DNA of 53,447 bases. Origin: an uncultured Gammaproteobacteria bacterium. GTDB taxonomy: Bacteria; Patescibacteriota; Patescibacteriia; Magasanikbacterales; GWA2-37-8. Position 1 is the first letter of the stretch; the number at the start of each line of letters is the position of its first letter. Location: the NCBI GenBank assembly GCA_964363145.1, contig CAYIHE010000001.1, forward strand, positions 1-53,447, read 5' to 3'. Position numbers and translations under genes: made by a program. Positions 6,470 to 47,100 of this stretch are shown here, piece after piece. Below the pieces are notes generated by a model. That model was not told the origin of the DNA. It worked only from the letters and a program-made list of their open reading frames with translations, and made no database searches.

Positions 6470-6895
6470 TCAAGGCAATTTGCTTATAATAGAACGAAAA
6501 AACTCCTTGTCTTTGGGGTTGGTAAGCAAATCAGCCGCTTCACTTTTGTTTACCCATCTGGCTTCAGGGTTGTCCGGATCTATCGGTTTTAACTCGCGCT
6601 GGCTGGTTCTAAACAAAAACATAAAAATTGTCTTGTGTTCGGAAAAGTCATGTCCTCCCTCAATACTGGTTTTATATCTTTGGTAATCGCCTAATTCGGA
6701 AATTAATTCCAACTGATTTACGCCGGATTCTTCATAAATTTCTCTTTTGGCGGCCGCTAATTTCTCTTCTCCGGCCTCAATATGGCCTTTAGGCAAAGAC
6801 CATGCCCGCCCGCGCTGATTTACTATCAGCACTTCGCCGTTTTCATTAATTACCACTCCGCCGGCTGATTCGGTTTGTTTTGTTTCTACACTCAT
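6470..6895 (-). CDS. NUDIX hydrolase
   Basis: 141 aa. Nudix box GHIEAGEEKLAAAKREIYEESGV (GX5EX7REUXEEXGU). Confidence 0.85.
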   Translation of the reverse strand: MSVETKQTESAGGVVINENGEVLIVNQRGRAWSLPKGHIEAGEEKLAAAKREIYEESGVNQLELISELGDYQRYKTSIEGGHDFSEHKTIFMFLFRTSQRELKPIDPDNPEARWVNKSEAADLLTNPKDKEFFRSIISKLP

Positions 6896-7812
6896 AAATT
6901 AAATAGTTTATTGGCATTTTTAGCAGTTATTTCTACAACTTCGTCAAAAGACAGATTTTTTATCTCCGCAATTTTTTTGGCCACTTCTTCCACCATCCAC
7001 GGTTCGCAACGCTGACCACGATAAGCCTGCGGAGCCAGATATGGCGCGTCTGTTTCTATTAACATACGCTCTAACGGACAATTTTTTATAACTTCAAGTA
7101 AATCTAATTGCGGTTGTGGGTCTTTTTTTGGAGGAAAAGTGATGACGCCGGTAAAACCCAAATGTAATCCCAAATCAAGATATTTCTGGGCGTGCGCCCA
7201 ATCAGATGTATAGCAATGCACAACCCCTCTTACTTTTTTTTCTGTCATCCCGAGCGTAGCCGAGGGATCCCTTACACTAGACGAAAGGGATTCCTCCACG
7301 GAGTTTATGCCCCGAGGGGTAGTCGGAATGACAAGCGAACGCAAGAGCTCCACCATTTCATCATGGGCATTACGCACATGAATCACCAGCGGTAAATTTA
7401 ATTCTTGCGCCAATTTGTATTGCGCGATAAAAATTTCTTTTTGTTTTTTAAAGACTTCTTCCTTGCTTACACCATCCGGCTGATGGAAAAAATCCAGCCC
7501 GCACTCGCCGATGGCGATAACTTTTTTGTTTTGCGCCAATTTTTTATAAAATTCATAATCAAAATCTTCGGCGCGTGAATCAAATTTGGCTTCGCTTTCG
7601 TCCACATGCGATTTAAAAAGATGAATCGGGTGGAGGCCGATCGTGGCAAAAATATTATTGTATTTTTCCGCGTATTCAACCGCTCGAACGCTAGTGTCTT
7701 TTTGAGAACCAACCACATTTAAAATTACGCCTTTCTCCCGGCAGCGTTTTATAACATCTTCATAGTCATCTTTGTAGGCGTTGAATTGAATGTGGCAATG
7801 AGTGTCAAACAT
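6892..7812 (-). CDS. tatD: TatD-family metal-dependent hydrolase/DNase carrying an in-frame repeat insertion
   Basis: 306 aa. MFDTHCHIQF, IAIGECGLDF, LPLVIHVRNAHDEM, VVHCYTSDW and IETDAPYL motifs. Overlaps the NUDIX start by 4 nt. Confidence 0.9.
   Translation of the reverse strand: MFDTHCHIQFNAYKDDYEDVIKRCREKGVILNVVGSQKDTSVRAVEYAEKYNNIFATIGLHPIHLFKSHVDESEAKFDSRAEDFDYEFYKKLAQNKKVIAIGECGLDFFHQPDGVSKEEVFKKQKEIFIAQYKLAQELNLPLVIHVRNAHDEMVELLRSLVIPTTPRGINSVEESLSSSVRDPSATLGMTEKKVRGVVHCYTSDWAHAQKYLDLGLHLGFTGVITFPPKKDPQPQLDLLEVIKNCPLERMLIETDAPYLAPQAYRGQRCEPWMVEEVAKKIAEIKNLSFDEVVEITAKNANKLFNL
7243..7333. repeat. Family B element inside the tatD coding sequence
   Basis: TGTCATCCCGAGCGTAGCCGAGGGATCCC...GGAATGACA. 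Read through as VIPTTPRGINSVEESLSSSVRDPSATLGMTEKK. Confidence 0.8.
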
Positions 7813-15178: not shown

Positions 15179-15769
15179 CTAGAACGGCAAAGTTAAATTT
15201 ATATTTTTTCTTTCTTTATTCGCGTTTTCGGCCGACTGCATGTCAAAATTTACGGCAAACGGCACTACTTCCCCCACCAAAGATTTATAAAATAGTTGTT
15301 TATTATTTTTCCCAAATTCGTAAAGCTCTTTGGTTACTTTTACGTCTTGTTCGCAATATTTTTTAATTTTATCTATTTTTCCTTCTTTCCACCATCTAAT
15401 AGCCTGCAGACCGTCCGCGCTTTTTGCTATATCTAAAGTAGCCATGGCGACATCGTTTAATTTTAGACGGATGCCAATGCTAGACTTGATTTCCTTCATT
15501 ATATCCAAGTGATTTATCGTGGAAAGATCGCCTAAATAATAATTATGCAAAATAGGCAAATCAAAATGCTCGCTGTTGTAACCGATAATGCGGTCGGCTT
15601 TTTCCAAAATCGGCCACAGCTTATTTAATTCATTTTCCTCAAAACTGGTATAGCTGTCGGTTGCATAACTATATATAGAAACACAAGAAATTTTGAATTT
15701 TTTAAAATCATTGTCCACGTCCGCGAACGTATTTTGTGTTTCTATGTCAAAAACTATTTCGTTTAGCAT
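15179..15769 (-). CDS. DEDD/RNase H-fold 3'-5' exonuclease
   Basis: 196 aa. ExoI FDIET, ExoII GYNSEHFDLPIL, ExoIII YCEQDVKVT. Confidence 0.7.
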   Translation of the reverse strand: MLNEIVFDIETQNTFADVDNDFKKFKISCVSIYSYATDSYTSFEENELNKLWPILEKADRIIGYNSEHFDLPILHNYYLGDLSTINHLDIMKEIKSSIGIRLKLNDVAMATLDIAKSADGLQAIRWWKEGKIDKIKKYCEQDVKVTKELYEFGKNNKQLFYKSLVGEVVPFAVNFDMQSAENANKERKNINLTLPF

Positions 15770-17052
15770 ATTCGAATTGAATTGTTACTAATATAGTATG
15801 AGTTTATGGGAGTTTTGTCAAGAGCGGACAAATCCATGCTGTTTTCAAAAGCTAAAACATCTTTTAAACGCGCTTTTGTGACCGGATGTTTCGCCACAAA
15901 TAAACTGCAGCAATCCTCGTATGGCCGGGCGGAAATATCCAACGTGCCAATGCGGCGCGCGAGGTTTATTATATCTTTTTTATTTGTTCCTATCAAAGGC
16001 GCGAGTTTGAGCATGTCGGTGGCCGAGTAGATCGCCGTCATGTTTTCCAAAGTTTGCGAAGCCACCTGTCCCAAGCTATCGCCGGTAGTTAGCGCCAAAT
16101 AATTATTTTGGCGCGCGATATTTTCAGAAATTTTATAAAAAATACGGCGAATGCTTATCATGCGATATTTTGCCGGCACTTTCATTACAACCTGCCTTTG
16201 CAGTTCGGCAAATGGCACAATAAATAATTTTATTTCCGGCTGATAATTTGACAAAACTTTTGCCAGATCAAAAATTTTCTCGCTAACTTCATCGGTAACT
16301 TTAGTTTGATTTTGGAAATGCACCAACCCGATTTCCGCGCCACGGCACATCATTTTGTAGGCCGCCACCGGACTGTCTATTCCGCCGGACAATAGCGCCA
16401 AAACTTTACCCGAACTGCCTGTCGGCAATCCGCCGGCGCCGTCGGTGGTGTTGCCATAAATACAAGCTTCATCTTTGCCAACGGAAATATGGATATTCAG
16501 ATCAGGATTATTTAAAGATACCTGCCAGTTATATTTTACGCGCGTGTACTCCCCTATTTCTTTGGCGATTTCTGCCGATGAAAGCGGAAAATTTTTAAAA
16601 GAACGTTCCGCGGAGATGCGGAAATTCGTCTTTTTGTAATTCTGAGCCCATCCGACTTCACTCATTGTCATCCCGAGCGAGCTCGCCGCGGCGAGCGACG
16701 AGGGATCTCTGTCCCACTCGTCGCGAGACAACCGGACAGAGATTCCTCCTTCGTTGTCGGAATGACAAGTGGCGGATCGGGATGACAATTGGACAATACT
16801 ATCCACTCCTTTTTTAATATCTTCAATCGTTGATTTTGTTTTTACAGCCTCTGCGTAATTGGCAAAGCCCGGAATAAGAGCTAACTGGCGCAATTGTTCT
16901 TTTTTAATATCTTCCAACCACAAACCACCTTCTACTCTGGCGACACGGATGCCGGTCAACAATCTTTCAAAATTATTTTTAAGCTGACGATAAAAAATGG
17001 GCTGGTTGGAGCCCTTTAAAAAAATTTCGTCGATGTGAATAATTACATTCAT
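15763..17052 (-). CDS. thiI: tRNA 4-thiouridine synthase ThiI carrying an in-frame repeat insertion
   Basis: 429 aa. PP-loop LLSGGIDSPVAAYKM and THUMP-like N-terminus. Overlaps the exonuclease gene by 7 nt. Confidence 0.85.
   Translation of the reverse strand: MNVIIHIDEIFLKGSNQPIFYRQLKNNFERLLTGIRVARVEGGLWLEDIKKEQLRQLALIPGFANYAEAVKTKSTIEDIKKGVDSIVQLSSRSATCHSDNEGGISVRLSRDEWDRDPSSLAAASSLGMTMSEVGWAQNYKKTNFRISAERSFKNFPLSSAEIAKEIGEYTRVKYNWQVSLNNPDLNIHISVGKDEACIYGNTTDGAGGLPTGSSGKVLALLSGGIDSPVAAYKMMCRGAEIGLVHFQNQTKVTDEVSEKIFDLAKVLSNYQPEIKLFIVPFAELQRQVVMKVPAKYRMISIRRIFYKISENIARQNNYLALTTGDSLGQVASQTLENMTAIYSATDMLKLAPLIGTNKKDIINLARRIGTLDISARPYEDCCSLFVAKHPVTKARLKDVLAFENSMDLSALDKTPINSYYISNNSIRIC
16666..16787. 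repeat. Family B element with duplicated right terminus, inside thiI
   Basis: TGTCATCCCGAGCGAGC...GGACAGAGATTCCTCC...CGGAATGACA (to 16767), then a second CGGGATGACA (16778-16787). Confidence 0.8.
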
Positions 17053-32758: not shown

Positions 32759-32765
32759 ATTTCAT

Positions 32766-32843
32766 TGTCATTCTGAGCGTAGCGAAGAATCTCTGTCCGT
32801 TTTGCGATTGAGACAGAGATCCTTCACTTCGTTCAGGATGACA
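32766..32843. repeat. MITE-like palindromic element, family B
   Basis: TGTCATTCTGAGCGTAGCGAAGAATCTCTGTCC...GACAGAGATCCTTCACTTCGTTCAGGATGACA. Fills the mraY / ATE-like spacer. Confidence 0.85.
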
Positions 32844-32852
32844 ACCGTATCT

Positions 32853-39352: not shown

Positions 39353-40735
39353 ATGACAAGCTACCTTAAACGCTTTTCTTTCAGCGCCTTGCTAATAATT
39401 GGGACGGCTATTTTTACTTTTGTAAACGCGAATACAGCATTGGACGTCCTGGCGCTTTTGCTGATTGTTTTTATTATTTTACAAAAAGTTTTCGGCGAAT
39501 ATTTTGTTTTAATTCTTTTGGCCGCGCGTCCGACGCTGGATTTTTGGCGTGATTTTAGTCTTTTTTCTTTCCGGTCGTTTGAATTTAACATCAATTCGGC
39601 TTTATCCGTATTTTTACTAATTTGGTCAATATATTTTTTTGTAAAAAACCGCGCTTATTTCAAACAAATACCCGCCAAAATTCCCTGGCTGATATTTATG
39701 GGCTGGATTTCTCTTACCGCCATTTACAGCTATGATTTAATTTCTACCATCCGAGAAACGGCCAAAGCCGCCAACCTGTTTGCCTTATTCGGCATTTGCT
39801 TCATAATGTCGATAAAAAACAAAGAAATTTTTGGCAAAAAATTTTTAAAAAGCATGATTGCGGGCGCGATTTTGCCAATGCTTGTGGCCGCTTATCAATT
39901 TTTATCCCGTACCGGCATGGACATAGACGACATTGGTAACAGAATTTACGGCACTTTCGCCCACCCTAATATTTTAGCAACCTATGCCTTGCTTTTATTA
40001 ATAGTTGTAGTGAATGAGTTGTTTATCGCTAAAAATACAACGTTGAAATCCCCGCTTGGGCGGGGTAGGGGTGGGTTGGCCGTGATTTTATTTTTACTGG
40101 CCATAATCGCCTTTACCTACACTCGTATTGCCTGGATCGGCGCGGGAATGCTATTTGTAATTTTGGGCTTGGTTTATTACAGAAAAATTCTGGTGGTGAT
40201 TTTATCCGCCGCGGCTTTATTTTTCGCGCTATTTTATCCGTTAAATAATTATTTAATCCAAAATTATAATATTAATTTACAATCCTCCGGATTAATTTCC
40301 CGCTTAACTTCCCGCAATGAAGATTCTGATTCAATAAAATGGCGCGTAAATTTGGCAAATAAAGTTATGCCTCTTTTCCGCCAACGCTGGCTATTGGGTT
40401 ATGGCTACGGCTCGTTTCCCAAAGTTTGGGACGACAATAAAGACGTGGGGAATATCTGGGATACCACTTCCGAAGCGCATAATGATTATATAAAAGTTGC
40501 TTTTGAATCCGGCGTTGTCGGTTTGCTTTTATTTTTATTTATTTTTGCCAGTTTACTTTACCGACAAATAAATTTTGCCGTAAAAAACCATTGGACAAAC
40601 GTTGTGTTCATAGCCAGTATTGGAATTTATCTGATCTTGAGTCTTTCCGATAATATGTTGCATCACACGCCAATGATTTGGTGGCTGTGGGCGGTGTGGG
40701 GGGTGTGGAGCTACAAGTTGAAAGTTGAAAGTTGA
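39353..40735 (+). CDS. O-antigen ligase (Wzy_C) family membrane protein
   Basis: About 460 aa polytopic protein. SEAHNDYIKVAFESGVVGLLLF motif. ATG at 39353 preferred over the alternative start at 39335. Confidence 0.8.
   Translation: MTSYLKRFSFSALLIIGTAIFTFVNANTALDVLALLLIVFIILQKVFGEYFVLILLAARPTLDFWRDFSLFSFRSFEFNINSALSVFLLIWSIYFFVKNRAYFKQIPAKIPWLIFMGWISLTAIYSYDLISTIRETAKAANLFALFGICFIMSIKNKEIFGKKFLKSMIAGAILPMLVAAYQFLSRTGMDIDDIGNRIYGTFAHPNILATYALLLLIVVVNELFIAKNTTLKSPLGRGRGGLAVILFLLAIIAFTYTRIAWIGAGMLFVILGLVYYRKILVVILSAAALFFALFYPLNNYLIQNYNINLQSSGLISRLTSRNEDSDSIKWRVNLANKVMPLFRQRWLLGYGYGSFPKVWDDNKDVGNIWDTTSEAHNDYIKVAFESGVVGLLLFLFIFASLLYRQINFAVKNHWTNVVFIASIGIYLILSLSDNMLHHTPMIWWLWAVWGVWSYKLKVES
40049..40076. 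repeat. Hairpin module C inside the O-antigen ligase CDS
   Basis: Identical 28-mer to 6122-6149. Read as SPLGRGRGG. Confidence 0.85.
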
Positions 40736-40771
40736 AAGAATAAAGGCGGAGATCACTATCCGCCTCTCACT

Positions 40772-40822
40772 CCGCCGCACACCCATTCGGCTCTGCGGCA
40801 CCAGCGTGCTCGGCGGATTTTT
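40772..40822 (+). terminator. Intrinsic terminator after the O-antigen ligase gene
   Basis: CCGCCG...CGGCGG stem (40772-40816) followed by ATTTTT. Confidence 0.45.
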
Positions 40823-41158
40823 AGCCAGACGGATTTTCCTTATAGGAAAATCTCGTCGCTAAAAACAAAAAACCACCCAGAGAGAGTCACCTAACGAAGT
40901 AATAAATTACTTAGTCGGGTAATCGGGTGGTATTTTTGTTAGGCAGATAAATCTGCCCATTTCCGCTCACTTTATAAATGAACGCAAATGGACAGGTCTG
41001 CCAGCGAAAGCCCCAAAGGGGTCCTTCAATTCTAGTGATTATATTTTTGTACTTTCGTAGCTTTCGTATTTCGTACATAATCATTAAAATTGAAGGGGGG
41101 AAGAGAGTTGCTTAAACAACCGCTATCTCTACTCTCTTCCCCCACCAGGATACTACTC

Positions 41159-41953
41159 CTACTCCATGTTTCGCCCGTCGTACGTGCACTTGAACATGTC
41201 GTAGTAAACCGCGTGATAGAAGGTGCTTTCGACACCGCTCCACTCGATCTGACAGTCAATGGCGACACGATTGCCACCACTCGAGTAACATTCGACCGAG
41301 CAGCTAGAGGCTGGCGCCGCCTTCCACGGATCACCGGCCAGACCGTCGTACAGACTTTCCGGAGGGTAAGTCCCCAACGGAGGTGCTGGCTCGGCGATCT
41401 CGAATCCGCCCCAGAACACGCAGTTCACGGCTGACTCCGACGGCCAAATTTGCATGCCACCGCAATCGGCCAGGGTGTACACACACGTACCTCCCGAGCA
41501 CGAATCGTTCGTCCAGCCCCACCCGTCGTCGCAGTCCGCATCATCGTCGCAGGCCGGACAGACCGCGTCCGGCGTGGCCGCGTCCACAGGGGTGGGCGGC
41601 GGGGTCGCATCGGGCGGCGAGGCATCCGGTGGCGGCACAGTGGCCGCGTCGGGCGTGGGCGGAACGGCGGCGTCCGGGCTCGGAACCGAAGCATCCACAG
41701 TGGGTGGAACGGCGGCGTCCGGGGTCTCGGGAACCGTCGCGTCCGGCGTGGCCGGGGTGGCCGCGTCGCACTCGGGCGTGTTGCCCGCGTCCGGCGTCGT
41801 GACCGGGACGGTCGCGTCGGGCTCCATCGGCGACGGAGTCGCGTCGACCTCCTCGGTCGGCGGCTCGGCGTCGGGCAGATCCTGCAGCGGCAGGTCCTCC
41901 ATGAGGCAACCCGTCGCGCCAAGAACACACATCAAGAACAGACTCTTCATCAT
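41159..41953 (-). CDS. High-GC Pro/Thr/Asp/Ala-repeat, Cys-rich putative lipoprotein
   Basis: Start at MMKSLFLMCVLGATGC (signal peptide plus lipobox-like Cys). SD GAGGAG at 41962-41967. PDA(A/T)VPP repeats. CPACDDDADCDDGWGWTNDSCSGGTC block. Confidence 0.7.
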   Translation of the reverse strand: MMKSLFLMCVLGATGCLMEDLPLQDLPDAEPPTEEVDATPSPMEPDATVPVTTPDAGNTPECDAATPATPDATVPETPDAAVPPTVDASVPSPDAAVPPTPDAATVPPPDASPPDATPPPTPVDAATPDAVCPACDDDADCDDGWGWTNDSCSGGTCVYTLADCGGMQIWPSESAVNCVFWGGFEIAEPAPPLGTYPPESLYDGLAGDPWKAAPASSCSVECYSSGGNRVAIDCQIEWSGVESTFYHAVYYDMFKCTYDGRNME

Positions 41954-42046
41954 TGTCTCATCTCCTCTGGCCGCATCCGTGCGACCATATCTCGAACGTG
42001 ATCTCCACTCCAACCAACGGCATCATTGCCATGGTTGTAGTTTTTT

Positions 42047-42120
42047 TGTCATCCTGAACATAGTGAAGGATCTCTGTCCGTTTGATTGGACAAAATTTCT
42101 TCGCTTTGTTCAGAATGACA
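42047..42120. repeat. Family B element inside the high-GC island
   Basis: TGTCATCCTGAACATAGTGAAGGATCTCTGTCC...TTCGCTTTGTTCAGAATGACA. AT-rich like the host. Confidence 0.85.
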
Positions 42121-42174
42121 AGGTAAATTCATTTTAAGGTGCTTTTTCGATCTGTTTCATATTCCTATTTCTAC

Positions 42175-42212
42175 CAGACAGAGATCCCTCACCTGGATGG
42201 TTCGGGATGACA
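42175..42212. repeat. Half family-B element
   Basis: CAGACAGAGATCCCTCACCTGGATGGTTCGGGATGACA. Confidence 0.65.
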
Positions 42213-42302
42213 ATCGTGAGTGGAATAAGGATATGAATGAATCGCCCTGCACCAGCCGACTCCTTTTGGGAATCAACTGGCGCAGGGAACTGCTGTGGGG
42301 AC

Positions 42303-42998
42303 TTACCTCCCCCACAAGTAGGACAGGTTGAAGCCGCTTACGGCGGCGTACTCTTGGGGAGTGTCCCCGTGAGCGCGCGAACCGCGCACACCGTAGGAAA
42401 CATACCCCTCAAGCAACATCCCGGCCTTTTCTACCGCTACCCGGAAAGACGGGCCGTAGAACGTCTCGTTCCAGGTCTCGCGTGGATGCGAGTCCTGGTT
42501 GATGGTTCCGAGCAGGTCGAAACCGACCCCGAAAGCCACGATCTTCGTATCCGGCGTTGCGTAGCACATGACGGCTACGGAGCTGGACACGGAGATGGTG
42601 TTGAAGCGGCCATCGCCCAGTCCGGCCCGGGCGCGAATGCGCCACGGCGAGGACTTGAAGCCGATCTGACCGACGAGGTCGGCTGTGATCGCCAGACCGC
42701 CACTTGGGTCTCCAAGCAGGTAGGCGTAGCCGAAGCCGATGCCTCCACGAAGGGAGGTGTCGGACTTCTCCTCCACCACGACGAGCCGGGTGGGGGCCGC
42801 CAGCGCCACCTTCTTCTTGAAGAATGGGACCGGGATGAGAACCTCGATGGTGAGGGTCTCACCGGCCTTGGGGGCCGAGAAGACCATTGGCTTGTCGGCG
42901 TCTTCGGCCGACACGGTGACGGTCTTGTCCTCGGCGCGAGCGTTCGTCACGCCTACGGCACAGAACATCAGAAACACCATCTGCTTCGCATTCTTCAT
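42303..42998 (-). CDS. High-GC secreted protein with an outer-membrane beta-barrel-like pattern
   Basis: 231 aa. Signal peptide MKNAKQMVFLMFCAVGVTNARA. About 8 alternating-hydrophobic strands (GIGFGYAYLLG, KIVAFGVGFDLLG, YAAVSGFNLSYLW). SD GAGGAG at 43007-43012. Confidence 0.65.
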   Translation of the reverse strand: MKNAKQMVFLMFCAVGVTNARAEDKTVTVSAEDADKPMVFSAPKAGETLTIEVLIPVPFFKKKVALAAPTRLVVVEEKSDTSLRGGIGFGYAYLLGDPSGGLAITADLVGQIGFKSSPWRIRARAGLGDGRFNTISVSSSVAVMCYATPDTKIVAFGVGFDLLGTINQDSHPRETWNETFYGPSFRVAVEKAGMLLEGYVSYGVRGSRAHGDTPQEYAAVSGFNLSYLWGR

Positions 42999-43226
42999 CT
43001 TCTCGTCTCCTCTGGTCCCGCTCCTGCGGGGCCGTTTGTGAATTGTAAAAAACGATCTTCTTCATCCCCCCACCACTATTAGTGAGGAGACCAAGTGATC
43101 GTGCGAGTGGTTTAGACTCGCACGGGGTAGGCATGATCCCGATTCGCCGGTTGGCAAATGGGACACATGTGTTGGTCGGTGAGGGACCTGCCATGCACCG
43201 GTCGCCCTAGGCGACCTGGTGCGGGG

Positions 43227-43784
43227 CTACTCCTCGCCGAAATACACGGGCTCCAGCCTCGGCACGACTACGATCGTGCCGAGCTGGGTTGAGACAGGCG
43301 CGGCCCTGATGGCCGCAACCTCCTGCTCGACGGCCTCGACCCTTTGCCGAACGTTCTGCGCGTACTTGCGCAGATCGCGGCGGTTGGCCTTCTTGGCGTC
43401 GTCCAGATCGACCAAGTCGGCCTTGGTCTTGAGATCGCTCAGGTCGGCCTTGCTGGCCTGCAGCTTCTTGATCTCGCTGAGGAGGCCTGCGGCGGACTGG
43501 CGGTCCGTCACTGCGTCGGCCTCCAAGACCCCAGTCCTTTTCTCGACCTGGAGTATGCGAACCTGCAGCATGGTGATGTCCGCGCCGGTCTGGGCCGTCT
43601 GGGCCTTGACCGTGGCCGCGCTGTTGTCGCGCGACACCTTGCCTTGGCAAGTGACAGCCAGGAGAACCAGTGTCGCGGCCAAGATCATGGCCATGAAAAC
43701 CGCAAATGCTACCGGCTTGCGCTGTGGCCGCTTCGTCACCGCCGTCGACTCGTCCGGATTTCCACCGTTCTGCTGTCCGCTCAT
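43227..43784 (-). CDS. High-GC single-pass membrane protein with a coiled-coil ectodomain
   Basis: 185 aa. TM segment VAFAVFMAMILAATLVLLAV, then heptad-like LQVRILQVEKR...LLSEIKKLQASKADLSDLK. SD GAGGAG at 43792-43797. Confidence 0.65.
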   Translation of the reverse strand: MSGQQNGGNPDESTAVTKRPQRKPVAFAVFMAMILAATLVLLAVTCQGKVSRDNSAATVKAQTAQTGADITMLQVRILQVEKRTGVLEADAVTDRQSAAGLLSEIKKLQASKADLSDLKTKADLVDLDDAKKANRRDLRKYAQNVRQRVEAVEQEVAAIRAAPVSTQLGTIVVVPRLEPVYFGEE

Positions 43785-43846
43785 GTTCTTTCTCCTCTCG
43801 GTCAGTTCACCCTCGTCTTGGCCACACGGCCTACGAAGGGTTTGAT

Positions 43847-43938
43847 TGTCATTCTGAACCTAATAAAGAATTTCTGCTTTGTAAAACAGACAGAGATTCT
43901 TCACTACGTTCAGAATGACAATTGGTGACAGAATGACA
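43847..43938. repeat. Family B element with duplicated right terminus at the island border
   Basis: TGTCATTCTGAACC...GACAGAGATTCTTCACTACGTTCAGAATGACA (to 43920), plus a second ACAGAATGACA (43928-43938). Confidence 0.85.
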
Positions 43939-44070
43939 ATCGGATAATTGGTGGACTTATGTTTTAAAACAGCAAAACCTCCGTATGAGAGAGGTTGTAA
44001 AAGGTTTGACGACCCGCGCAATATTCTCTCGATATTGTTGGGCCGGTCTTTAACTTTTAAAAGACGTATT

Positions 44071-44099
44071 ACTATATCATACATCCCAAAATTTGTCAA
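44071..44099 (-). promoter_or_regulatory. Consensus sigma70-like promoter facing the high-GC island
   Basis: On the minus strand: TTGACA (44094-44099), 17-nt spacer, TATAGT (44071-44076). Confidence 0.45.
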
Positions 44100-44120
44100 T
44101 AGGCGCGCCCCGCAAAAACC

Positions 44121-44148
44121 AAAAATTAGCCGATATTTGGCTAATTTT
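44121..44148 (-). terminator. Intrinsic terminator of the giant gene
   Basis: On the minus strand: AAAATTAGCC-AAATATC-GGCTAATTTTT, then GGTTTTT. Lies 34 nt after the stop. Confidence 0.6.
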
Positions 44149-44181
44149 AGAGAAAAAATAAGTTATCTCAAAACAAGTATT

Positions 44182-47100
44182 TTAACGTCCGGTTATATCT
44201 TTTAGCTTATTTAAGTCCTCCCACTGCTCATCGGACAATTTAATAGCTTCTTGGTGTGTAAATTTTCTAGTTACACCATATTGGTCCGTCATAAGCAATT
44301 CGCCTTTTTCGTTAGTGTTAAAAATCCAATCTTTATCATGAATAAAAATATCTTCACCTTCCACCGGATCCCAAATTCTAGCCGCATGTCCACCGTTGGT
44401 CAAAACTGGTTCTCGGAGCACTTCCCTACCTTCAATCATAACTAAATCAATTACTTTGTCTTCTTTTTTAAACATAACGTCGCGAAAATCAGACATCCAA
44501 TCTGGTTTATATGTGTTAAATTTCTCTTCCACGGCTAAAACTTTTTCTATTATTCTTAAATTTTCACTACCTGTAATCTCGTGGCTAGAAAGCTTCTCAA
44601 ATATAAGATCCGGCTGATTATTATACAAGAAATCAATTTTCTTTTGCAAAATTATTTCCGAATCACCCCGGAAAACAAATGAGTTGTTAAATTTTTCTAT
44701 GGTCGCGTCTACCATTTTATCGTAAGTATTTATAAATTCTCTAGGACTGGAACCACGCTCACGCAAAAATTCATTGGCAGAAACACGAACATCCTCGGCT
44801 GGCGCCGCCGCTGTTTCTATTCCCGCGGAACCTTTTGCGCCAACTGACACAGCCGATGTTTTGGTTTCCACCGCCGAAGTTTTGGCAGATATAGTATTCA
44901 AAGTTTTTTCCACACGCGTTGGAGCCGGCGCGTTGATTTTTGCTTCCGGCGGATAATCGGTCATTAGTTCCGCTCCCGATTTGGCAGACACTTCTTTGGC
45001 TGCTTCCAGCGGACTAGTTCTTTCCAAAGTGGTATGTTCGGACAAAACAAATTTGGGTTCTGTTGCAACAGGCTCGGCGCCGGGCAATACGGCCGCTGTT
45101 TCGTGATGAATACCCGTGCTCATTTGATCTACCGTTACAGACCCGCTGCCGCTTAAAATTGGCTGGTTATTTTCCAAACCAAAGTAGTTGACTTCTCCAC
45201 GAACATGATTATCAATCCCGGGTTTGGCATCAGTAGCATCAACTTCCAATCCGGCGTTGGCCAAATCCGTGCTTTCCCTGCCTTGCATAGCTCTAAACAA
45301 CCCTCTTACCATTTTGTTATCTTCTTCGTCATACTGCCGGGCAAATTTCAAGTACTGGGCAGGCGTATCTTTATCAATATACTTGGACAAATAACTTAAA
45401 TGCCGCTCGCTAAAATCCTGGCTCTGCAAATATTTGGCGGCTGATTCCGGCCCGCCTTTTTTTAATAATTCTTCAAAAATCACCTGCCGGCGTTCTCCTC
45501 CGCCTTCGTCTAAAGTATCTATGTGACCCTTAATAAAACTATAATGTGAACGAACGCCGCCTCCAACTTGGCTGGAGTTTAAAATATTCTGAACTGAATC
45601 CGGATTATTTAATTCCGGATATTCTTGTGCCAAATTACTAAGCGCGGCCGCGGCTTCCGGACTTAATTTATGTTCCAGAGCAAATTGATCCACGGAAAAA
45701 CTAGACGCCACTTCTACCGGAACAACCGAGGAGCTAACTTCACCAGACGCCATTTGTTTCGGTTCCAGTCCCTCTTCACCGGCCGGATGCGAGGATTGTT
45801 TATGATCTCCGCGCAAATACTCTTGTAATTTGGCGGTACCATAACCCAGCCCGGCGCCAGCCACCGCGCCAACTACCCCATACCCAACCGCGCGCCACCA
45901 GCCGGGTTTGCGCAAAATTCTTTGTTTGATATTTTGCTGTTCAGTGGTTAAGCTTTCTAAATCTTTATTTAAACCGGTTAAAAGATTTTCCACGGCACTA
46001 TGGCGCAAATTTTCCGGAGCCGGCACTTCATCTAATTGCGGAGCTTCGTTTAAATAAATATTTATCTGCAAAGATTCCACTCGACGCAAAACATTTTGAG
46101 CGCGTAATTTTAAATTTATATCGCCTTCCAACATTCCCAAAGTTAAAGGCACACGCAAATCTTTGGCGCTTTCTGCCAATTCCGCCATATTTTCCGGCTT
46201 GAATTCGCCCGCATTTTCTGTTTTTTGCCTTTGCGCCCAAGTTTCTACCAATTTTTCCGCTTTAGCGATATTGTTTTTAAATTCTTTTTCAAATTGCATT
46301 TCTCTGGCTTTGCGATCTTTGAGGTGGCCATATTTTACTCCCAAGTAACCGCCGGCCGCAGCGCCCAACAAGGCCCGCAGTTCCGGCGCCGCGGCCAAAG
46401 CCGCGCCAATGCTGGCGCCAGCTGCCACTGAACCTAAAACCGAAGCGATTTTTCTGGCACTGCTTTCTTTTTTAACCGGATCTTTATCAGCGTCTTTAAC
46501 AAACTTGCTGAATTCTTGGCCATAAATAGTCAGGTTTTGCAATTTTTTAACAATTTTCGGATCGCGATTAATAAGCTCCTGGATTAAAGCTTCCAAATCT
46601 TTGTCTTCGTATAATTTTTTGATTAAAACTTCAACTCTTTCGGTTTGACTGCGTTTTATTTCTATTGCCGATTCTTCGCCAGAGGATATTTTTACTTCGG
46701 CAAATTCTTTGTCAATTTGGCCGGCGACTTCTTCCAAAGCAACTTCGGCGTTGGCTTTTACTTTGGTTATATCTTCATTTTTTACTGCCGAAGCGCTGGC
46801 GTCGCGCAAACTCTGGCTTAACATGGCGGAAAGCTGTTCCAGCATTTGCGGACCTTCTTCGCCGGTAAATTGAGCCAGCAAACTATCGCGCAAGTTTAAA
46901 GATTTTTCTTCTTTTATTTTTTCTTTGCCAACGGAAATTTCCTGATTGGCGTTTTCTTTTCTTTTATTAAACCAGCCCCTAATGCCATCCACTTTGTTTT
47001 TTAGTCCACGCAACAATCCGGTGGCGCCGCCTACAGCGGCGCCACGAACCGCGCTACTGGCGCCGCCAGTGGACAGCAACAATCCCACACTGCCGCCCAA

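Follow-up and report, generated by a model that had tools for sequence, protein, structure and literature searches.

GC-rich operon and the repeats within it

The stretch of DNA analyzed here (the window, 53,447 nt) is the entire contig C1 of the Patescibacteria genome G000, a fragmented metagenome assembly of 961 kb in 114 contigs with 43% GC and 94% completeness. Its minus strand carries an operon of three genes (the GC-rich island), and copies of a small repeat, designated family-B, lie in the spacer between genes 2 and 3 and in the leader of the operon (Table 1). An earlier note on this DNA had regarded the repeats as host-type miniature inverted-repeat transposable elements (MITEs) and had taken them as a sign of long residence of the island. 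We conclude, with a probability of about 75%, that the copies were secondarily inserted into an old operon and belong to a repeat family of the Ssn/SRM kind found throughout the genome, in which TGTC-tagged repetitive extragenic palindromic (REP) hairpins occur as inverted doublets and as singlets.

The presence of elements inside and at the border of the island was confirmed concordantly by the sequence itself, a repeat finder, a motif search, and nhmmer with a model made without the island copies. The motif search gave 8 matches against 0.22 expected, a number reached in none of 100 shuffles. Read on the operon strand, the element of the gene 2–gene 3 spacer has the canonical order, with the ATTCT/AGAAT arm first and the ATCCT/AGGAT arm last; one arm is a perfect family arm (TGTCATCCTGAACATAGTGAAGGATCTC), and the other is decayed. 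The orientation of the leader copy is ambiguous because both its arms are of the ATTCT/AGAAT type, and this copy is the most diverged among 36 full copies of the genome. The two full island copies are 78% alike and rank 29th and 36th of these 36 in their match to the family model, with one decayed arm each. They are spaced by exactly 1800 nt, which was taken as a coincidence. Of the other sites cited by the earlier note, 1105-1192 and 32765-32844 proved to be good family copies, but 16665-16768 and 7243-7296 belong to a related subfamily and lie within open reading frames (ORFs).

Table 1. Repeats, native signals, and genes described in the text (positions are those of the window).
Feature	Position	Strand	Description
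Full family-B element	42046-42121 (76 nt)	minus	imperfect palindrome, inverted doublet of TGTC-tagged hairpin arms; nhmmer 58.9 bits, E=1e-17
Solo arm (REP singlet)	42177-42213	minus	CCC/GGG-stem subtype, TTGTCATCCCGAACCATCCAGGTGAGGGATCTCTGTC; nhmmer match 42152-42213, E=9e-5
Full family-B element in operon leader	43846-43921 (76 nt)	ambiguous	nhmmer E=1e-12; 42.5 vs 42.3 bits on the two strands
Duplicated terminus	43929-43941 (12-13 nt)	not assigned	CAGAATGACAAT(C) / CAGAATGACAATC; repeat finder; 7 nt past the end of 43846-43921
Family-B copy, intergenic	1105-1192	plus	nhmmer
Family-B copy, intergenic	32765-32844	plus	nhmmer
Related CCC/GGG-stem subfamily copy	16665-16768	not assigned	within ORF 15763-17052; nhmmer
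Related CCC/GGG-stem subfamily copy	7243-7296		within long ORF 6892-7812; nhmmer
GC-rich hairpin, native	42245-42287	minus	19-bp stem; just past gene 2 stop codon; no U-tract; absent from terminator list
Native intercistronic module, split by the solo arm	42122-42244	minus	CGATTCATTCA at 42234-42244, GAAACAGATCGAAAAA at 42143-42158
Native gene 3 leader	41954-42045	minus	GGCAATGATGCCGTTGGTTGGAG at 42008-42030, small hairpin, CAGAGGAGA ribosome-binding site
Promoter-like site	44071-44099	minus	TTGACA-17-TATAGT, 11/12 positions, TG extension; conserved in all relatives
Terminator-like hairpin of conserved leader	43976-43996	minus	AACCTCTCTCATACGGAGGTT then TTGCTGTTTT
Island gene 1	43227-43784	minus	185 aa, N-terminal membrane anchor and coiled coil; GC content at third codon positions (GC3) 0.84
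Island gene 2	42303-42998	minus	231 aa, signal peptide; GC3 0.81
Island gene 3	41159-41953	minus	264-aa lipoprotein, Pro/Asp/Ala/Thr linker, Cys-rich domain; GC3 0.78

Structure and size of the repeat family

Family-B has about 83 loci in G000, of which 59 are near-full-model doublets by nhmmer. The 36 full copies scoring at least 40 bits were used for counts of orientation, arms, and flanks. The family consensus is TTGTCATCCTGA-xy-NNN-y'x'-GAAGGATCTCTGTC, a variable loop, and then GACAGAGATTCTTC...TCAGAATGACAA. The elements are small, have terminal inverted repeats, and contain no ORF.

Each arm is a hairpin of its own, ATCCT-GA-xy-NNN-y'x'-GA-AGGAT, in which the TGTC tag is followed by a stem of 5 bp, a tandem G.A/A.G pair, a second stem of 2 bp, and a triloop, mostly GNA or ANA. 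The stem thus has 9 positions including the two G.A pairs, the loop 3 nt, and the tail is CTC. The TGTC tag and the pairs A5-T25 and T6-A24 are invariant or nearly so. In the 72 arms, pair 12-18 was A-T (36), G-C (35), or G-T (1); pair 13-17 was C-G (37), T-A (27), T.G (7), or mismatched (1); and the inner stem was CCT/AGG (36), TCT/AGA (34), or mismatched (2). Among 40 distinct arms, 98.6% of cells were paired, and both-sided changes occurred in three of seven pairs (51 cells). This covariation was unmatched in any of 500 shuffles, and slid registers collapsed. The asymmetry between the AGGAT and AGAAT arms is maintained family-wide.

Solo arms are common and often represent doublet halves split by nested insertions, which gives apparent half elements. 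Further hairpin modules were observed nested in doublet loops, GTCATTCCC...GGGAATGAC and CCCCTCCTTTCCAAGGAGGGG...GGTAAGGAGGGGAT (G000:C10:5286-5476; C7:1036-1310; C3:29129-29290; C11:4412-4556). An Rfam scan yielded nothing at the gathering threshold; at permissive E-values, long hairpins matched miRNA precursors, but only by chance. Querying the literature with repeat DNA strings and with peptides from the false ORFs of the repeats returned no relevant paper.

Nuclease gene between the arms and search for a transposase

Hairpins called Ssn-related motifs (SRM) are known to flank small GIY-YIG genes, whose products (Ssn) cut single-stranded DNA beside the hairpin in a strand-specific manner (Chenal et al., 2025; PMC11893778). 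In G000, a 114-aa GIY-YIG ORF (C47:2954-3172; Pfam PF01541, 53.6 bits) is bracketed by family-B arms, with a perfect TT-type arm 7 nt 5' of its ATG and a CC-type arm just past the gene. The same arm–gene–arm bracket was found by coordinates in G002 (C131) and G012 (C9).

Terminal inverted repeats, small size, lack of coding capacity, dispersed occurrence, and variable copy number would suit classical MITEs, which arise by deletion from a DDE-type insertion sequence and depend on the transposase of that sequence, acting in trans, for their movement. However, no target duplication of 5 nt or longer was detected at the 36 copies, and at most one copy had a matching 4-nt flank; there was a weak AA/AA 2-nt signal, and the flanks were A-rich. 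No DDE_Tnp_1 or TnpB gene was found in the 94% complete assembly of G000, so that their absence is not proven. The Y1/RAYT gene was found neither in G000 nor in 14 of 15 other species of the genus, including G006, with one match in G014. The single rve ORF of G000 (C13) has no flanking tags and is unrelated to the family-B ends. Moreover, covarying hairpins inside the arms are not needed in inverted repeats bound by a transposase, solo arms and nested modules are common, and a GIY-YIG gene stands between arms. We therefore consider an origin from a DDE-type insertion sequence very unlikely. The label given to the elements in the earlier note has to be corrected from MITEs to nuclease-linked TGTC-tagged REP doublets; "MITE" is applicable only loosely, in the sense of a gene-less derivative. 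The genome provides an example from the Candidate Phyla Radiation (CPR) in which a gene-carrying parent unit and its gene-less offspring occur together.

The published SRM pattern, HGTCWYN(0-2)YYVSBRHN(0-5)WNVSBRGN(0-2)RNCYNB, was found in G000 at only four sites, all outside family-B and two of them NTS-like. Two hairpins near-identical to the Neisseria NTS type, e.g., TGTCATTCCCGCCGTAAGCGGGAATCCAG, were observed at G000:C21:6734 and C12:15344.

Filled and empty sites in the operon

Relatives share conserved non-coding parts of the operon, mostly with 36–50% GC. The leader copy (43846-43921) is situated in a variable linker; locus L005 of a relative has a copy at the same point, and L001 and L004 have none. 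The copy at 42046-42121 occupies a variable stretch of the intercistronic module. At this point L005 and L004 also carry copies, with nested inserts, while L002 and the paralogous gene 1–gene 2 modules are empty. The solo arm at 42177-42213 interrupts a native ATCCTTATT...ATAGGAAT stem-loop and was detected in the window lineage only (spacer alignment columns 127-170 are filled in the window alone). The islands of G006 and G004 contain no copy at all, though G006 is the copy-richest genome of the genus. The insertions are thus seen as clean indels in conserved spacers, with empty sites in L001/L002.

This comparison of filled and empty sites in homologous islands, which the earlier note had proposed, demonstrates that the elements are secondary indels in an established operon. 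The inference of recent mobility that the note had drawn is not supported by the island copies: they rank low in the family, each has a decayed arm, and the gene 2–gene 3 site is filled in three lineages. The window and L005 have the same uncommon AAT(T)TT change in an arm of the gene 2–gene 3 copy, a hint that this copy is of common descent in the two.

Native signals of the spacer and leader

The gene 2–gene 3 spacer is 349 nt long (41954-42302), and its RNA is strongly structured (z=-8.9). The order of signals in relatives is a GC hairpin, CGATTCATTCA...ATAGGAATGTGAAACAGATCGAAAAA, a short variable stretch, GGCAATGATGCCGTTGGTTGGAG, a small hairpin, CAGAGGAGA, and ATG. The GC hairpin, CCCTGCrCC...GGyGCAGGG, is kept after gene 1 and/or gene 2 in relatives, and its distal stem covaries. 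The native module recurs after both genes in relatives (window 42122-42302; L001 7724-7921 and 8597-8686; L004 7038-7202) and is unique to this locus within the genome. The hairpin that the earlier note had seen after the second gene is real, with 19 bp at 42245-42287, but it is native and conserved and is no consequence of the insertions. Nor is the suggested dependence of gene 3 on signals supplied by the elements upheld, since the hairpin, the CGATTCATTCA...GAAACAGATCGAAAAA module, the GGCAATGATGCC motif, and the CAGAGGAGA site are all native and kept in element-free relatives. A 24-codon upstream ORF starting 13 nt past the 42046-42121 element was considered as element-borne and rejected: its ATGGCAATGATGCC start lies in a native motif that element-free relatives also keep.

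The leader of the operon consists of the promoter-like site, about 110 nt of near-invariant sequence, the terminator-like hairpin, the variable linker, a conserved hairpin, and a ribosome-binding site. Within 43950-44099 (minus strand), the conserved promoter is thus succeeded by about 110 nt of leader that are far better conserved than the genes downstream, also in G006 and G004. This leader contains a hairpin, AATAT-CGAGAGA-ATATT. Covariation is seen in its stem, which is AGTAT/ATACT in G006, and its loop, GAGAGA, is the complement of CUCUCU in the terminator-like hairpin further downstream. By its sequence, this leader is a candidate attenuator or riboswitch-like structure; no match to it was found in Rfam.

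Orientation of the copies and weighing of their origin

The copies are not placed at random relative to genes. The ATCCT/AGGAT arm was directed toward a gene 5' end in 27 cases against 7 (p=8e-4) and the ATTCT/AGAAT arm toward a gene 3' end in 23 against 9 (p=0.02). An ATG was located 3–15 nt past the end of the ATCCT/AGGAT arm in 25 of 36 copies, and past the other end in 5 of 36 (p=3e-6). In doublets that end 3–15 nt upstream of start codons (e.g., C35:7212-7296, C3:25757-25839, C59:3282-3391), the gene-side arm is always ATCCT/AGGAT. The transcript-sense end of an element, ...TTCAGGATGACAA, can supply an AGGA box masked by the element's own hairpin. The bias fits any of three explanations: a strand-specific process acting on single-stranded DNA, survival of only those insertions into very short spacers that keep the ribosome-binding site, or a selected RNA role.

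The last of these would make the elements cis-acting RNA structures under selection, such as mRNA-processing or stabilizing hairpins or translational gates, and not selfish passengers. Besides the bias and the pre-start placement, such a role is supported by the last arm in transcript sense, which ends in ...UUCAGGAUGACAA, a Shine-Dalgarno-like AGGA box masked by a hairpin upstream of the next gene, by the arm asymmetry kept family-wide, by the gene 2–gene 3 site filled in the window, L005, and L004, and by the strong structure of the spacer RNA. On the other hand, congeneric species have anything from 0 to about 68 loci, and the orthologous operons in L001/L002, G006, and G004 do without copies. 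One arm of each island copy is decayed. The 42046-42121 element is canonically oriented, yet the ATG 13 nt past it is part of the native motif, and gene 3 actually starts 92 nt from the element. The bias itself is also expected from a strand-specific process on single-stranded DNA or from purifying selection against insertions that destroy ribosome-binding sites. On balance, a selected RNA function appears improbable for the family, at odds of well below one in five.

Several observations weigh against the Ssn/SRM-type origin that we prefer. Two other small GIY-YIG genes of G000, on C55 and C75, have no flanking family-B arms, and the published SRM pattern matches no family-B arm, these being AT-richer. 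The C47 protein had no match in NCBIfam, and its only solved relatives in PDB were UPF0213 GIY-YIG proteins, at a weak E-value of about 1e-3. In the literature, mobility driven by the nuclease is a hypothesis with no demonstrated mechanism (PMC11893778). Finally, the orientation bias, the placement 3–15 nt before starts, and the repeated occupation of the gene 2–gene 3 site may signal a selected function.

A doublet without a gene represents the remainder of an arm–gene–arm unit from which the nuclease gene is absent, and G000 contains one intact unit of this kind. The copies probably spread via single-stranded DNA and without target duplication; transposition has been demonstrated in no paper. 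As the filled and empty sites show, the island copies entered tolerant, non-conserved points in the native non-coding parts of an old operon. Judging from conservation, the copies are most likely co-transcribed passengers, and gene 3 is probably served by the native hairpin, the intercistronic module, and native ribosome-binding sites.

Residence and composition of the operon

The high-GC block described in the earlier note is real: the three coding sequences have 62–67% GC in a genome of 43% GC. A Pfam scan of genes 1–3 gave no significant match. Because the metagenome assembly is fragmented into 114 contigs and repeats stand at the composition borders, an assembly or binning artefact joined at shared repeats was considered. 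However, four independently assembled contigs of other samples or assemblies (ERZ1292629, GCA_964366525.1, ERZ1292635, ERZ1292638) are colinear with window positions 40552-45953 at 99.95–100% identity and span both island borders and all the elements. Relatives at about 60% protein identity have the same gene order and the same GC jump, and the two full island copies, being 78% alike, are too different for contig fusion. The probability of an artefact is negligible, and the view of the earlier note that the island is no assembly chimera is borne out.

Seven homologues of gene 2 were found among 5.8 billion proteins, and all those traced are in the same synteny: giant gene, gene 1, gene 2, gene 3, opposed Wzy ligase gene, and radical-SAM gene. 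In the traced relatives (about 60% protein identity), the three genes have 60–68% GC and the flanks 37–48%. Gene 3 has only 11 homologues, and none of those traced indicates a high-GC donor. Among the 15 other species of the genus, gene 2 homologues with 25–34% identity occur in three (G004, G006, and G014), each time within a block of 55–65% GC surrounded by DNA of about 42% GC; the gene order is the same in G006 and G004. The island has thus long been resident between the giant gene and the Wzy ligase gene, as the earlier note had supposed. The high-GC block in the window is genuine resident DNA, neither a chimera nor a recent import.

GC3 of genes 1–3 is 0.72–0.86 in most genomes, with exceptions of 0.59–0.65 for gene 3 of L001 and genes 2 and 3 of G004, and that of the neighboring genes is 0.30–0.48 (clusters at window 41159-43784; L012 7260-9788; L013 7598-10132; L001 7160-9640; L005 1186-3985). 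The pattern persists in the other genomes of the genus in which the cluster was found, even with gene 2 at only 25–34% identity, so that saturation of synonymous sites must be assumed. With the leader and most spacers conserved and at 36–50% GC, the high GC appears to be a feature maintained in the coding parts rather than an un-ameliorated import. The operon is more unusual than the repeats it harbors: its GC3 stays near 0.8 from species to species in a genus of 43% GC, and its spacers and leader are host-like and conserved. Other isolated genes of high GC3 were observed in G000 (C25:10605-11780, C85:1957-2766, C3:12044-12562); these are an ORF of more than 391 aa with GC3 0.90, located at a contig end beside two family-B copies, a Nudix-like ORF with GC3 0.80, and a small lipoprotein whose Pro/Asp/Ala-rich linker resembles that of gene 3.

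The operon encodes fast-evolving surface proteins. Between lineages, gene 1 is 40–43% identical, genes 2 and 3 are 60–65% identical, and the neighboring Wzy gene is 79–81% identical. The lineages resemble each other in a mosaic fashion: the gene 3 copies of L002 (8884-9696) and L005 (3182-3985) have 84% identity, and L001, of the same lineage as L002, differs from L005 more strongly in gene 2 (50% identity) and gene 1 (48%), with 78% in Wzy. This suggests cassette-like recombination inside the operon. A role in allele replacement was proposed for NTS around Neisseria antigen genes. By analogy, hairpin doublets and the GIY-YIG nuclease might gate allele replacement at this hypervariable operon, with the conserved AT-rich spacers serving as recombination anchors between exchangeable high-GC coding cassettes and with high GC3 arising as a by-product of recombination (biased gene conversion) or of message selection. 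We regard this scenario as speculative and rather unlikely.

Distribution of the repeats beyond the genome

An exact sequence search found the arm TGTCATYCTGARYNNNRYGAAGRATCTC in at least 119 contigs of many phyla, the matches listed including Saccharibacteria, Chloroflexota, Acidobacteriota, Bacteroidota isolates, Nitrospirota, Planctomycetota, Cyanobacteria, Clostridia, and others. Of the 119 loci listed, 24 have 60–70% GC, and 77 contain full doublets recognized by the model derived from G000, including loci of 64–68% GC. Genomes of the genus itself contain between 0 and about 68 loci each. The repeat is therefore not "host-type," and its occurrence in high-GC lineages, which the earlier note had itself named as a point against its reading, was indeed found. 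Since the same doublets exist in high-GC bacteria, the type of the repeat alone cannot show residence, and the conclusion that the note drew from the repeats is saved only by the comparison of filled and empty sites. The reasoning from a host-type repeat to long residence is unsafe for family-B, whose hairpin is near-unchanged in bacteria of any GC content.

The exact arms in contigs of 60–70% GC and the full doublets at 64–68% GC (Acidobacteriota, Gemmatimonadota, and others) would also allow a joint transfer of the copies and the high-GC genes out of a high-GC donor harboring the same repeat family. We consider this highly improbable. The copies lie in conserved spacers and a conserved leader of mostly 36–50% GC, and their flanks join cleanly in copy-free relatives. 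The best arm is identical to the commonest arm type of the host, the search of 5.8 billion proteins revealed no homologues of gene 2 or gene 3 in a high-GC donor, and the operon is common to several species of the genus.

Comparison with known systems

The class to which we assign family-B is already described (PMC11893778; PMC3733652), and the elements reported here are further members of it. The NTS consensus CGTCATTCCCGCGMAVGCGGGAATCYRG (Chenal et al., 2025; PMC11893778) and the family-B arm have the common frame GTCAT-stem-loop-stem-ATC, and in NTS/SRM as in family-B the repeats are oriented hairpins about 28 nt long, (C/T)GTCAT-stem-loop-stem-ATC. Intergenic copies number tens to hundreds in either case, with an occurrence across phyla and around surface-protein genes, and both kinds of repeat flank a small single-domain GIY-YIG gene on its two sides. 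Family-B differs from NTS/SRM in its AT-richer stem, tandem G.A pair, and triloop, in the lack of a match to the published pattern, and in its CPR host; the C47 protein is a candidate member of the Ssn clade (cd10448).

The CGTC-tagged REPs, whose tag is often TGTC, have 8–9 bp stems opening with A-T pairs, a loop of 4–5 nt, and a 3-nt tail; inverted dimers predominate among them, no transposase is associated, and RPE-4 and RPE-6 of Rickettsia are of this type (Di Nocera, De Gregorio & Rocco, 2013; PMC3733652). Family-B resembles them in the unpaired TGTC tag and in a stem starting with A-T and T-A. Its stem has 9 positions, two of which are G.A pairs, and its unpaired tail is short. As with these REPs, most units are inverted dimers foldable as one long hairpin, some are intragenic, and no transposase is associated. 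In contrast, the loop of family-B is 3 nt (vs. 4–5) and its tail CTC (vs. CCA), and CPR is outside the five phyla covered by that survey (PMC3733652).

REPINs (Bertels & Rainey, 2011) are likewise inverted REP doublets that form a long hairpin with a variable loop and leave singlets as remnants. Unlike REPINs, family-B has the tag TGTC instead of GTAG, and no Y1/RAYT gene was found with it in G000 or in 14 of the 15 other species of the genus. Similar to Correia/NEMIS and other bacterial MITEs, family-B elements are small, non-coding, and near genes, have inverted ends, and are probably co-transcribed, with possible RNA hairpins. Correia elements have a TA target duplication and transposase-type inverted repeats. 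Family-B differs from Correia/NEMIS by the lack of duplication and by arms that each have their own covarying hairpin. With the Rickettsia palindromic elements (RPE), the family has in common that relatives of it are found in frame within genes (window 7243-7296 and 16665-16768); unlike RPE, the three copies in and beside the island are intergenic.

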